DNA of 50,608 nucleotides, from the IMG/VR virus record IMGVR_UViG_2667527522_000001; one strand, given 5' to 3'. The stretch comes from a virus. Taxonomy: Duplodnaviria > Heunggongvirae > Uroviricota > Caudoviricetes. Below are positions 18,084-47,164 of this stretch, piece by piece. The position numbers were made by a program, and so were the translations under genes. Position 1 is the stretch's first letter, and the number at the start of each line of letters is the position of its first letter. The notes under the pieces were generated by a model that had not been told where the DNA came from, did no database searches, and saw nothing but the letters and a program-made list of their open reading frames with translations.

Positions 18084-19436
<1,353 letters not shown>

Positions 19437-40748: not shown

Positions 40749-42164
40749 ATGGCTACGTGGCAACAGGGTATTAATTCTGGTGGTTTTCTGGCTGGCATCG
40801 GTACGCAAAATGAGAATGCGCCAAAGGCAAGCGACATTAACGCAACGCTTGGTCTGATCCGCGAAAACAATGAACTGGCTCGCTCAGGTGCAAATAACGT
40901 TGGCCTGACCGCGTTACATGGTCTGGCTGGAGTTGCTGATATTTACAATCAGGAACAGCAACAGAAAGCTATTAGTGCGTTCAATAAGGTTCACGCTGAT
41001 GCATGGGCTTCTGGTGATCCATCGGGACTATTTAAGTTTGCCAAGGAAAATCCAGCGTTTGTTGCACAGGCACAACAGGCGTTTTCCGGTCTTAATGAGC
41101 AGCAACGCAACGATATGGGCGATTTAGCCATGAGGGCTAACGTCGCTCTTTCTCAGGGACCGGAAGCCTACAGTAAATTCATTACTGACAACAAGGATAG
41201 GTTAAATCGCGTTGGTGCTAATGCTGACTGGATGATTCAGACAGGTATTCAGAATCCAGAGCAGCTATCACACATGCTGACTACTATGTCTCTCGGTGCA
41301 CTTGGGCCAGAAAAGGCGTTTGCTGTTCAGGACAAGATGGCTGGTCGTGAAATTGACCGAGGCAAACTGGCAGAGACAATCCGCAGCAATCAGGCTGGAG
41401 AAGCACTTCAGGCGAGAGGGCAAAACCTTTCCTATCAGTCAGCAATGACTGGACACAATATCGCAGCACAACGCTTGGCTCTGGATCAGCAAGAGTTCGG
41501 GTTTAAGATGCAGCAAGCACAGGAAAAGGCTCAGCAGTTGATTAGCGAAGCACCTAAGCTGTCAGTAAACATGGAAAAAGGCATCGAGACGGCTGTAAAC
41601 AATGCTACAGCATCATCAAACTCAGCCAATTCTATGAGTGCGCTTGCTCAACAGTTCAGAGCAGAAAAACCAACGACAGGTTTGTTCGGTAACGCACAGA
41701 ACATGTTCGCAAAACTTACCGGAAGCGATACAACATTGCGTGATTTGCGCATCCGCCAAAATGCCCTTGTTAACAGTCAGGTTCTTAAATTCCTACCTCC
41801 CGGCCCCGCAACGGATAAAGACGTTGAGATCGTTCGGCAGGGTGCACCAACTGACATGGATAACCCTGAGACGGTCGCAAGATGGCTTGATGCGATGGCA
41901 AACCTTGAGCGACGAAACGCGCAGTTTAATGAGTTTAAAGCCGAGTGGATGAGCGCGAATGGCAATCCAGGACAATCGCGTAATGGCGGTCAGATATTGG
42001 GGTTGGATGTTAAAAAAGGTGAATCATTGGGGAGTGCCGTTAAGCGGTATATGTCAATGAATACTGACGCAGCGCCAGCACAAGATTCGACACCTTCAGG
42101 AGAACCACGGAATCAGGTTGGATCATATACCTCAAAATCAGGCATTCAATTTACGGTGGAATGA
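40749..42164 (+). CDS. Ejection protein, P22 gp20 type
   Basis: 471 aa; position and composition. Confidence 0.75.
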
Positions 42165-44002
42165 TGAAAGTAACTGCAAACGGTAAGACATTTACCTTTC
42201 CTGATGGTACGAGCACCGAAGATATTGGCACCGCCATTGATGAGTATTTTGCTGGTCAGGCTGTTCAGCAACAAACAGTTAATCAGGCCAATAATGCACC
42301 AACACGGGAAGAACCATCATTGATGCAACAAGCTGGCGATTGGCTCACTGGTGGTCAAAGTGCAGGGCAAATTGCAGAACAGGCTGGTCGTGGTCTGGTA
42401 AACATACCATTTGACGTATTGCAGGGTGGCGCAAGTCTGATTAATGCAATCAGCCAGGGGCTTGGTGGCCCCAAGGTTTTGGATGATGTTTATCGCCCTG
42501 TCGATCGACCGACAGACCCCTACGCACAAGCCGGTGAAACAATTGGTGGGTATTTAGTTCCAGGAGTTGGAACGGCAGGAAGCATGGCTATTGGATCACT
42601 GGCAGAGGCCGCAAATCAGAAAGGCGATTTCGCACAAAATGCAGCTAAAAATGCCGGAGTTAACCTTGCCGCTCAGGGTGTTCTTTCCGCCGCAGCAAAG
42701 GGAATAGGGCGTGGAATAACGGCCATAAAAGGTGATATTGCGCCAGAAGTGGCGAAGAAAATTGCCACATCAGAATCGATGGGCGTGACACCAATGACAT
42801 CTGATGTTATCCCGCCGAAAAATGCTTTCACTCGTGGCCTTACTCAGGATGCTGAGGGGGCTTTGCTAGGGACAGGTTCAAAGCGTGCGGAGCAATATGC
42901 AACGCGTAGTAAGCTGGTAAGCAATTATTTTGACCGTTTTGGTGATTACAACCCTGATGATGTGGTGAAATCTCTGACCACCACGTTAAGGGGGCGGAAG
43001 GATGCCGCTGGCGCTGTTATCAATGACGTCACCAATAAAATGGGTAATGCCGCAGTTGATACCACAAATACCATGAATGCTCTGAATACAGCGATCGCAA
43101 GACAGGAACGGCTTGGGACGTCTGCCAATCAAAGCCTGCTTACATCCTTGCGTAACCTACGTGAAGAATTAGCAAACCCTGCAACTGATTTGGATGTTAC
43201 GTTTGATCTCTTGCGTCAGCACAGAACAGCATTTAGATCTAATGTTCAGGGAGATGCTATGGTCTTCCCCAACCAGGCAAAAGCAGCTACCAATATGGTA
43301 GAGAATGCAATGTCAAAAGACCTTCGTAACGCAGTTGCTAAAAACCTCGGTGCATCAGACGCAGCAAAATACCTTAAAGCAAATTCCGATTATGCAAACG
43401 TTTATAATAAGGTGCTTAATAAAAACATTGCTAACAAACTCAACAAGGCAAGCAGTGAAGCCAGTCCTGAACTTATAAATACCGTTGTATTAAGCAGAAA
43501 ACCATCTGACGTGAAACGAATCTGGAGCGCACTGGATGATAAAGGGAAAGATGCTATGCGTGCAGCTTACGTCAGCAAAATAGCGGAAAAGGCCGGTGAC
43601 TCTCCAGCCAAGTTCATCACTGAAGTTAATAAGCTGAAATCTCAGTCAGGCGGTGAAATTTACAACACTATTTTTTCTGGAAAGCACATGAAAGAACTTG
43701 ATGCTCTTCATGAAGTTCTGCAGCAAACAGCAAGGTCAGACACCGCAAATGTAGTAACTCAGACGGGGCAATCGCAAGCCAACAGGATAAGGACGATTGG
43801 CGCAACTGCGACTCTTGGCGTATCAATGGGGCTTGAGGCTGGTTTCGGTGCAATGATGCGCTTGTATGAGTCCAAAGCAGCAAGGAATGCGCTCTTACGT
43901 CTGGCAAACACCAAAGCAGGAACACCAGCCTATGAAAGAGCGTTGAGTAACGCTGCAAATGCCATCAGGCCGCTGCTTGCTACTGAGGCAACACAGCAGT
44001 AA
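42161..44002 (+). CDS. Ejection protein, P22 gp16 type
   Basis: 613 aa; position and composition. Confidence 0.75.
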
Positions 44003-44026: not shown

Positions 44027-44416
44027 TTAACATTTTCTTTTTACTTTTCCAACAAAAGCTTTGGTTGAATCCATATTCCCATAACCAGAAATGGTTTTTG
44101 ACATTAAAACTGTTCCAGTAGGATGTATTACCCATGAGTCGATAACGCGTTGAGTTTCGCCATTCGCGCCGATTCCTATGATGGAGTTTTTAGACAATGC
44201 TTTGTAAGCCATGCCGCCCGCATCTGTCCCAGAATATGTGATGCTGGCATCTTCACCGTTTGTCTTAATGATGAATGTTCCACTAAAACCATCTTCTTCC
44301 GGATGGAAATTATTTCGTTCTGAATAGCTTATTCCGCGCATATCTCCAACGACCCAGCACTCTGCTGTAGCCCCAAAAGATATGAATAAGAACATAGCAG
44401 TAAGAAATTGCTTCAC
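44027..44416 (-). CDS. Secreted or periplasmic protein in the sieA position, paralog of 18084-18488
   Basis: GTG start with AAGGAGG SD; signal peptide MKQFLTAMFLFISFGATA then ECWVVG; shared ...TKAFVGKV C-terminal motif. Confidence 0.6.
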   Translation of the reverse strand: MKQFLTAMFLFISFGATAECWVVGDMRGISYSERNNFHPEEDGFSGTFIIKTNGEDASITYSGTDAGGMAYKALSKNSIIGIGANGETQRVIDSWVIHPTGTVLMSKTISGYGNMDSTKAFVGKVKRKC

Positions 44417-44462
44417 ACCAACCTCCTTAGTTTTGAGCAGAACACCGGATGATAATGTTTTG

Positions 44463-44714
44463 TTATGTGTCTTTTGGGATTCTATCCAGTAACTCGTTGG
44501 AAATTTTATCAAGTAAAGATTTTATTTGTTTAAGATCTAATGATTTGTCTACTGATGAGACGTCAGATGATAACGCATCCTCAAGAATTTGAACTATCTC
44601 TGAGTTCATAGATCGACCGTTTCGTTTAGCCCTTTCCGCAATAGCACTACGCATGCCGTCAGGCATTCTAACCGTAAATCTTTCTATGAAATTTGATTCG
44701 TCTTTTTCTGACAT
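44463..44714 (-). CDS. Mnt-like ribbon-helix-helix repressor, copy 1
   Basis: FTVRMPDGMRSAIAERAKRNGRSMNSEIVQILEDAL RHH motif; 83 aa from MSEKDES. Confidence 0.7.
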   Translation of the reverse strand: MSEKDESNFIERFTVRMPDGMRSAIAERAKRNGRSMNSEIVQILEDALSSDVSSVDKSLDLKQIKSLLDKISNELLDRIPKDT

Positions 44715-44764
44715 TTTCTTATTCGCAAGGCATATGAGCAATAAAAAACACAGTAGCATCATAT

Positions 44765-44820
44765 TGACATTATGAGCAATGGCATCATAATGGTGTCATG
44801 ACATCATGGTGATGTCATTA
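44765..44820. promoter_or_regulatory. immI-type divergent promoter region with operator palindromes
   Basis: TTATGA-N9-TCATAA and ATGACATCAT-G-GTGATGTCAT inverted repeats. Confidence 0.55.
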
Positions 44821-46766: not shown

Positions 46767-46796
46767 AAACCCGCTTAATCGCGGGTTTTTTCTTTT
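46767..46796. terminator. Bidirectional terminator between convergent genes
   Basis: AAACCCGC-TTAATC-GCGGGTTT with A run 5' and T run 3'. Confidence 0.6.
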
Positions 46797-47029
46797 CTAA
46801 GGATATCAGCCGCAACTTCTTTTACTCGTTCCGAGATTAATGAGGCCAGCCTCTCTTCTTCATCACGATACCCGCTTACAGGTGATGGTTTGGAGAGTGA
46901 TTCTTCCATCGTAGCCACAATTTCGGAATTGATAGACCTGTTATTCATTTTTGCACGCTGCTTAATCTTAGCGTGCAACTCGTGTGTAAGCCTCAAGTGG
47001 AACTGCGCCTCATCGTATTTGCTGTACAT
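46775..47029 (-). CDS. mnt: Mnt repressor, copy 2 (closest to P22 Mnt)
   Basis: FHLRLTHELHAKIKQRAKMNNRSINSEIVATMEESLSKPSPVSGYRDEEERLA. Confidence 0.8.
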   Translation of the reverse strand: MYSKYDEAQFHLRLTHELHAKIKQRAKMNNRSINSEIVATMEESLSKPSPVSGYRDEEERLASLISERVKEVAADILRKEKTRD

Positions 47030-47164
47030 CATCAATGCCTCACCAAATGGGTGGAATGGCATCGTAAAACCCACTGTACAAATCAACAATCGTACCGTTT
47101 AGGTATGTAACAAATTCCAACCGTAGCCATGCTGCGGTGATTCCTTGTATCTGGAGCAAATTAA

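Follow-up and report, generated by a model that had tools for sequence, protein, structure and literature searches.

A stretch of 50,608 nucleotides from a tailed-phage record (IMG/VR record IMGVR_UViG_2667527522_000001; hereafter the window), 100% identical to a chromosome segment of E. coli Ecol_276, carries a P22-like prophage with a small gene at the position that phage P22 gives to sieA. On balance we favour the view that the product of this gene, here called the slot gene, is a prophage-expressed, periplasmic, disulfide-stapled barrel that serves superinfection exclusion at the envelope and replaces SieA. Of the views considered, envelope exclusion is the best supported because three lines of evidence meet in it: the export signals, the neighbourhood of an ejection gene behind the sieA leader, and the exclusion of P22 by Hex, the related protein of phage 434. 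A Hex-related, apparently exported beta-barrel at the sieA position suggests a second, periplasmic way of excluding rival phages. Databases already list the gene and its family, of which one member is named. Relative to the literature that we searched, what is new is that the sieA slot, with the sieA leader, can instead hold a Hex-family protein, and that the family looks built for export, in conflict with the cytoplasmic model of Hex.

The P22 record has the order 16(+), sieA(-), PsieA, terminator, orf59a(-), mnt(-), Pmnt/Pant, arc, ant, 9, and by this order the slot gene occupies the sieA slot. It lies 24 nucleotides from the stop codon of the convergent gene 16 homologue, and on its other side a gap of 46 nucleotides separates it from a co-oriented Mnt-like repressor gene upstream. 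The initial annotation, made from the letters alone, had proposed just this sieA position downstream of a co-oriented Mnt-like gene; both are borne out, and the leader ties the gene to the slot more tightly than position alone. Over 33 nucleotides, including the Shine-Dalgarno sequence and the GTG codon, this leader is 91% identical (blastn) to the bases directly upstream of P22 sieA. In a five-way alignment (slot gene, P22, Emek, JEP4 and phiv205-1) it is found before P22 sieA, before the slot gene, before orf129 of phage Emek, which is 97% identical to the slot gene and sits in the same slot, and before a 62-residue open reading frame (ORF) in JEP4 and phiv205-1. Since one leader precedes unrelated ORFs, different cassettes sit behind a common leader, and in the simplest reading the slot would be a cassette site with a common translation-initiation region. 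The 62-residue ORF is itself a third cassette, unannotated, with two hydrophobic segments and the same leader and GTG in the sieA slot.

The position is also kept among relatives. In 80 of 80 IMG/VR contigs carrying relatives 88-100% identical to the slot gene, the gene has gene 16 on one side and the tailspike side on the other. Each gp16 match that passed the filter in these loci adjoins the relative on the opposite strand, and the few loci without such a match are contig ends or have a gp16 too diverged for the filter. Between the relatives and the repressor gene, which is Mnt-like or, in a few contigs, LexA-like, there are small ORFs that vary. Three more distant members occupy the slot in divergent P22-like phages: P0032 (51% identical to the slot protein) overlaps an Mnt-like gene by 4 nucleotides on the gene 16 side, while P0104 (33%; in a phage without mnt and arc genes) and P0106 (29%) are directly convergent with gene 16.

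The slot gene and P22 sieA thus share slot, orientation, leader, Shine-Dalgarno sequence and GTG start, each being an accessory prophage gene convergent with gene 16, and the role proposed for the slot gene is that of sieA, to block the entry of P22-like phages. The proteins are nevertheless unlike. SieA resides in the inner membrane as a protein of 3-4 transmembrane segments with a cytoplasmic FxRYPxEAxxFNK motif, whereas the slot protein is predicted to be a cleaved, soluble beta-barrel; the motif is absent from its sequence, and it has no similarity to P22 SieA (BLASTP E 0.99; SieA types B and C were not compared). With sieA in only 22 of 66 P22-like phages (PMC10883804), two thirds of the sequenced ones lack it, and the content of their slots is undescribed in the literature that we searched. 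P22-type SieA, the one type checked, is absent from all loci that bear the slot gene. On our reading, cassettes with alternative exclusion functions would use the sieA slot, and the slot gene would be a candidate for the missing function.

The slot gene is a real gene and not a chance ORF. Against close relatives it shows purifying selection (ratio of nonsynonymous to synonymous substitution rates, dN/dS, 0.23-0.33). Profile searches retrieved about 114 homologous clusters (90% identity) and about 165 homologous representatives (50% identity), all of them single-domain proteins of roughly 125-140 residues; none of these homologues has a functional name, and all are 'hypothetical' in their sources except one 80-residue fragment. 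The gene runs from a GTG at 44416-44414 to a TAA at 44029-44027, and its Shine-Dalgarno sequence AAGGAGG (plus-strand CCTCCTT, 44422-44428), which like the GTG start was seen in the initial annotation, stands 5 nucleotides before the start. In E. coli Ecol_276 the Prokaryotic Genome Annotation Pipeline (PGAP) calls a hypothetical protein of 122 residues from an ATG at 44395, 7 codons after the GTG. We place the start at the GTG because the homologue N-termini (MK...) align there and because leader and GTG are common with P22 sieA; on the same grounds the PGAP start and a 161-codon ORF from a TTG at 44512 were both rejected. The product then begins with MKQFLTAMFLFISFGATA, continues with ECWVVGDMRG and ends in STKAFVGKVKRKC.

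A second gene of the window, at 18084-18488, encodes a paralog. The two proteins are 28% identical over their full length (133 columns; BLASTP E 1e-12) and both match phrog_2651 end to end, with E values of 3e-61 for the slot protein (2.9e-61, residues 14-129 against profile positions 1-116 of 117) and 5e-58 for the paralog. The latter shows 97-98.5% identity to what phage 434 and lambda imm434 carry as 'repressor protection protein', to Sf6 gene 38 and to unnamed genes of HK446, HK633 and Sf101. Judged by this identity the family is not anonymous, the paralog being Hex of phage 434 or gp38 of Sf6; Hex is the sole studied member of the PHROG 2651 family. The paralog ATG overlaps the stop codon of a repressor gene (ATGA). 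The same overlap with a 434/C2-type repressor gene occurs in 80 of 80 Hex-type viral loci, which are nearly identical to each other and therefore count as one module. The initial annotation had described a duplicated exported-protein family within one prophage. The paralogy and the family membership of both genes hold, but 28% identity and a separation of 26 kb rule out a recent tandem duplication, and the two are best read as old mosaic modules that meet in one prophage. At mature residue 11 the paralog has HGCG where 434 Hex has HGYG, which gives it a third, unpaired Cys (window 18087-18488).

Hex is co-transcribed with cI from PRM and takes its name from 'heterologous exclusion', the exclusion of P22 by Salmonella strains lysogenic for lambda imm434 (PMC3564112). 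When hex was deleted, recA+ cells, and only these, showed a 30-fold rise in spontaneous induction (PMC3564112). With the protein assumed to have 158 residues, a 6-kDa fragment of it (residues 43-103) inhibits in vitro the cleavage of the 434 and P22 repressors that RecA stimulates, and over-expression of the long form was lethal to the cells (PMC3564112). A signal peptide is not mentioned in that paper, and in the literature that we searched Hex is nowhere linked to export or to the sieA slot. The 158-residue 'full-length' Hex of PMC3564112 begins at an ATG inside the repressor gene (window 18084-18560). The family alignments and the ATGA overlap suggest that the real start is the ATG at 18488, which gives 134 residues. 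In the numbering of the longer form, Glu43 is the first residue past the predicted signal-peptidase site (…TSANS, then ECW), and the stable fragment begins there.

The slot protein shares with Hex the PHROG, the predicted signal peptide, the CW...C pattern and the predicted barrel, and each gene lies, on the same strand, downstream of a gene for a prophage maintenance repressor. They differ in setting. The slot gene sits in the sieA slot beside gene 16, uses the sieA leader and follows an Mnt-type gene after a gap, whereas Hex belongs to the immC region and follows a cI-type gene with the ATGA overlap. The place of Hex on the PRM transcript, right after a cI-type repressor gene, has only an analogous counterpart in the immI region, where the preceding gene is of the Mnt type. 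At the slot locus there is no obvious substrate for the cytoplasmic activity published for Hex.

The sole hydrophobic stretch of the slot protein is its N-terminal signal, in which the n-region contains a Lys, the core is hydrophobic and positions -3 to -1 read A-T-A (…GATA before ECW). The mature part is all beta in prediction and has one Cys at mature position 2 and one at the C-terminus. These features recur throughout the family. Of 217 near-full-length members, 163 show C-W close to the N-terminus, with the Cys at a median position of 21, and the remainder mostly have C-Y, C-F or C-L. Within the 163, Ala stands at -1 in 133, with A, S or V usual at -3; the n-region has K/R in 156; the last eight residues include a Cys in 152; the mature part has exactly two Cys in 124; and a lipobox-like motif is seen in just 3. 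The signal peptide, the ECWVVG motif and the C-terminal Cys picked out in the initial annotation are thus supported by the translation, the AxA site and the family statistics. An alignment of 51 diverse sequences shows no variation at C20, W21, G28, D42, W95 and G123 and at least 90% conservation of C129.

AlphaFold models built on this alignment are confident for both proteins, with a predicted local distance difference test (pLDDT) of 91 and a predicted template modelling score (pTM) of 0.79 for the slot protein, and 86 and 0.78 for the paralog. Both consist of a signal segment followed by nine antiparallel strands in identical order, so the structural likeness on which the proposed kinship had been made to depend is present. 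In the model of the slot protein the N-terminal helix stands apart from the barrel and the strands are 6-9 residues long. A cleavable signal, a hydrophilic barrel and Cys residues on the first and last strands together point to a soluble periplasmic protein in which one disulfide is expected. The predicted fold itself points to no function. Foldseek with the slot protein model gave no match below E 1e-3 in PDB or BFVD, the family profile matched PDB sequences only once, at chance level (E 1.6), Pfam and NCBIfam scans of both proteins gave no family match, and a Pfam scan of the 51 diverse members gave only scattered, chance-level matches.

In the mechanism that we propose, the slot protein would be made in the lysogen, from the sieA leader and start codon and, by its position, through read-through from the mnt-like promoter. 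The Sec pathway would export it, signal peptidase I would cleave it behind Ala18, and in the periplasm it would fold into a soluble, 12-kDa, nine-strand barrel whose first strand is tied to the last by a Cys20-Cys129 disulfide. There it may interfere with the DNA delivery of incoming P22-like phages, the candidates for the blocked step being the gp7/gp20/gp16 ejection-protein conduit, the needle or a cell-wall hydrolase, and in this capacity an unrelated protein would replace the inner-membrane SieA. We infer export, the disulfide in vivo, expression in the lysogen and the exclusion function with its target from the features described above. As to expression, transcription of the Mnt-like gene is the probable source of read-through; the promoter/terminator scan placed no terminator-like hairpin in the 46-nucleotide gap and none after the slot gene either. 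No PsieA-like -35/-10 pair could be placed in the window by eye, and we do not claim a promoter of the slot gene's own. If the proposal is true, escape mutants would indicate a periplasmic step of P22-type DNA ejection that is genetically hard to reach.

The phage that carries P0032 has an 836-residue gene 16 protein (L171/L172 5719-8229) in which a lytic transglycosylase (SLT) domain is fused to P22_gp16. Such a fusion implies that a wall hydrolase is delivered with the ejection proteins, and this hydrolase would be a possible target of a periplasmic inhibitor.

Exclusion from the periplasm has precedents. Sim of phage P1 and Spackle of phage T4 are small proteins with signal peptides that act in the periplasm, after adsorption, and stop DNA entry. 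We found no relation in sequence or fold between them and the slot protein; Spackle, which inhibits the T4 tail lysozyme, is helical, in contrast to the predicted beta-barrel. Cor (phi80, N15 and HK022) and Llp (T5) are prophage-encoded or early-expressed envelope proteins that block later infections. They are, however, lipoproteins that inactivate the outer-membrane receptor FhuA, and the slot protein is without a lipobox, the sequence A-T-A-E preceding its Cys with Glu at -1.

Several points weigh against envelope exclusion by the slot protein. The biochemistry available for the family gives Hex a cytoplasmic role, in which the RecA-stimulated cleavage of the 434 and P22 repressors is inhibited and loss of hex raises spontaneous induction (PMC3564112), and the exclusion of P22 by Hex could be an abortive infection and not a block of entry. 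The signal peptide was judged by sequence rules and not by a dedicated predictor (SignalP). In the promoter and terminator scan, sites occurred at the frequency found in shuffled sequence and not above chance. The absence of SieA from the loci that bear the slot gene holds for the P22 type and not for SieA types B and C, which were not checked, and PADLOC gave no match for the slot protein or its paralog.

Among the alternatives, a lysogenic-conversion protein of benefit to the host fares best, though we hold it unlikely. The slot protein would here be a periplasmic lysozyme inhibitor (PliC/MliC-like) or a calycin-like ligand-binding barrel that affects envelope physiology or stress resistance. 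Its G+C content of 0.405, compared with 0.473 in gene 16, is lower in the manner of a moron, and some members of the family lie at island edges without P22-like genes, a few of them next to integrases in Aeromonas, Cedecea and Symbiopectobacterium. Yet neither the slot protein nor the 51 diverse members match Pfam MliC (PF09864) or another Pfam family, the structural matches are no better than those to unrelated barrels, and the recurrent adjacency to gene 16 behind the sieA leader, together with the exclusion phenotype of Hex, points to phages.

That the slot protein protects a repressor in the cytoplasm, binding the prophage repressor, lowering its RecA-stimulated self-cleavage and so tuning spontaneous induction, appears improbable to us. 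The idea draws on the hex deletion and the in vitro activity of the Hex fragment described above (PMC3564112), and the C2-type repressor of the prophage does belong to the 434/P22 class. The gene that the slot gene follows, however, encodes an Mnt-type ribbon-helix-helix protein without an S24 self-cleavage domain, and P0104 occupies the slot with no repressor gene nearby. The AxA signal peptide and terminal Cys pair conserved throughout the family would have a use outside the cytoplasm. The active Hex fragment is half of the predicted barrel, was purified with guanidine and has its N-terminus at the predicted signal-peptidase site, and the hex deletion removed DNA overlapping the cI stop codon, by which cI expression may have been altered.

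The repressor partners of the family are in fact of more than one kind. Two independent, diverged members, P0080 and P0059, overlap by 4 nucleotides the stop codons of genes for 210-residue repressors with helix-turn-helix (HTH) and S24 domains, and the repressors overlapped by family members are of two unrelated kinds, HTH with S24 peptidase and ribbon-helix-helix Mnt. Another member, P0025, is about 50% identical to the slot protein and 31% to Hex, and in a lambdoid prophage it lies convergent with a cI-type repressor gene; as a slot-type protein beside a cI-type repressor it shows that subfamily and locus do not correspond one to one. The family gene may thus have moved between the repressor site and the sieA slot more than once. 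With partners recurring as cI-type, Mnt-type or no repressor, the common factor would be expression in the lysogen and not a RecA substrate.

An outer-membrane beta-barrel of the OmpX/Lom/Ail/PagP kind, suggested by the record of phage Huey, in which the Hex-type gene and not the slot gene is labelled PagP, can hardly be entertained for a mature part of only 111 residues that is hydrophilic overall, has several strands of 6-7 residues that are too short for a membrane, carries two conserved Cys that are unusual for such barrels, belongs to a family ending in Cys or Cys plus 1-3 polar residues (here ...KRKC) with no C-terminal aromatic residue, and matches no outer-membrane family in Pfam. The full label of the Huey gene (PQ850609.1 25922-26323) is 'antimicrobial peptide resistance and lipid A acylation protein PagP', and we found no support for it in sequence or model.

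A Hex-family protein at this position ties the sieA slot to Hex and so to a 40-year-old exclusion phenotype that is without an envelope-level explanation. The predicted signal peptide, the Cys pair and a fragment N-terminus at the signal-peptidase site are together a reason to re-examine the cytoplasmic model of Hex. More tentatively, and as a possibility to which we would not yet give even odds, the Hex family as a whole may be an unrecognised class of periplasmic superinfection-exclusion mini-barrels, carried either behind a repressor gene or in the sieA slot, that block the trans-periplasmic DNA ejection of P22-like phages from the periplasmic side, where SieA does so from the inner membrane. 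If this were true, cytoplasmic 'repressor protection' would be a side effect of a mis-assigned start codon and a half-barrel fragment, and a prophage with two members of 28% identity would exclude a wider range of phages.

Carriage of both genes by one genome is the exception and not the rule, which answers the survey of co-occurrence proposed in the initial annotation. Of 5,426 complete E. coli genomes, 146 carry the slot gene, in each case as 'hypothetical', 206 a Hex-type gene, and 332 either of them. By inclusion-exclusion about 20 genomes carry both, where about 5.5 would be expected if the genes were independent; this is a count at the level of genomes and does not establish that the two share a prophage. 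The excess is unsurprising because both genes ride lambdoid or P22-like prophages and many of the genomes are clonal, and an obligate pairing of the paralogs is ruled out by so low a number. Both genes are present on two IMG/VR contigs. In a set of 50,697 phage records the sieA-slot type occurs only in Emek and ST-35, the Hex type in 434, lambda imm434, HK446, HK633, Sf6, Sf101, Huey and Chlobot, and none has the two together. A close sub-alignment search of a species-representative genome set gave one locus.

Table 1. Features of the slot gene, its surroundings and its paralog. Positions refer to the window unless a locus is named.
Feature	Position	Strand	Basis or remark
Slot gene, coding sequence	44027-44416	minus	129 codons + stop; member of the Hex family (phrog_2651) at the sieA position, predicted to be exported
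Predicted Sec signal peptide, residues 1-18 (MKQFLTAMFLFISFGATA), cleavage before ECW	44363-44416	minus	sequence rules
Predicted mature domain, 111 residues, 12.0 kDa, grand average of hydropathy (GRAVY) -0.33; nine-strand up-and-down beta-barrel	44030-44362	minus	AlphaFold model, protein properties
Leader common with P22 sieA, GGTATCCTGCxCAAAACTAAGGAGGTTGGTGTG, including Shine-Dalgarno sequence and GTG	44414-44446	minus	blastn, five-way alignment
Gene 16 homologue (DNA-ejection protein), convergent with the slot gene	42161-44002	plus	annotated DNA transfer protein; one boundary of the slot
Mnt-like ribbon-helix-helix repressor gene 1, 83 residues, directly upstream of the slot gene	44463-44714	minus	Pfam Arc, E 2e-17
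Divergent promoter-like sites between mnt-like and arc-like genes, at the position of P22 Pmnt/Pant	44758-44791	both	sequence scan
62-residue ORF of the third cassette	L165 2324-2509 (phage JEP4); L166 2321-2506 (phage phiv205-1)	minus (locus coordinates)	
Paralog, Hex of phage 434 / gp38 of Sf6, 134 residues	18084-18488	minus	98% identity to 434 'repressor protection protein'
C2/434-cI-type LexA-like repressor gene, translationally coupled to the paralog	18485-19117	minus	annotated LexA-like repressor / LexA family protein

Beyond the first Mnt-like gene lie a divergent arc-like gene, a Bro-N/P22_AR_C antirepressor gene, two ORFs, a second Mnt-like gene and the tailspike gene. The divergent promoter-like sites listed in Table 1 read TTGACA-16-CATAAT on the plus strand (11/12) and ATGCCA-16-TATGAT on the minus strand (9/12). 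One immI region therefore holds two Mnt-like genes (44463-44762 and 46775-47089), with the arc-like gene, the antirepressor gene and a 271-residue ORF between them. PGAP labels the first Mnt-like gene a partial pseudogene despite its intact frame of 83 codons. At three other loci (L059 6299-6940, L063 4587-5228 and L021 5523-6383) the gene upstream of the slot gene encodes a LexA/C2-like repressor of 213-286 residues and not an Mnt-type protein, and JEP4 has a C2-like repressor at the corresponding place.

Rfam gave nothing in or near the slot locus. Elsewhere in the window it placed isrK at 2063-2140 (69 bits) and the C4 antisense RNA at 2221-2308 (81 bits), a pair that is the signature of a P1/P7-type immunity element or a cryptic prophage to the left of the P22-like prophage.
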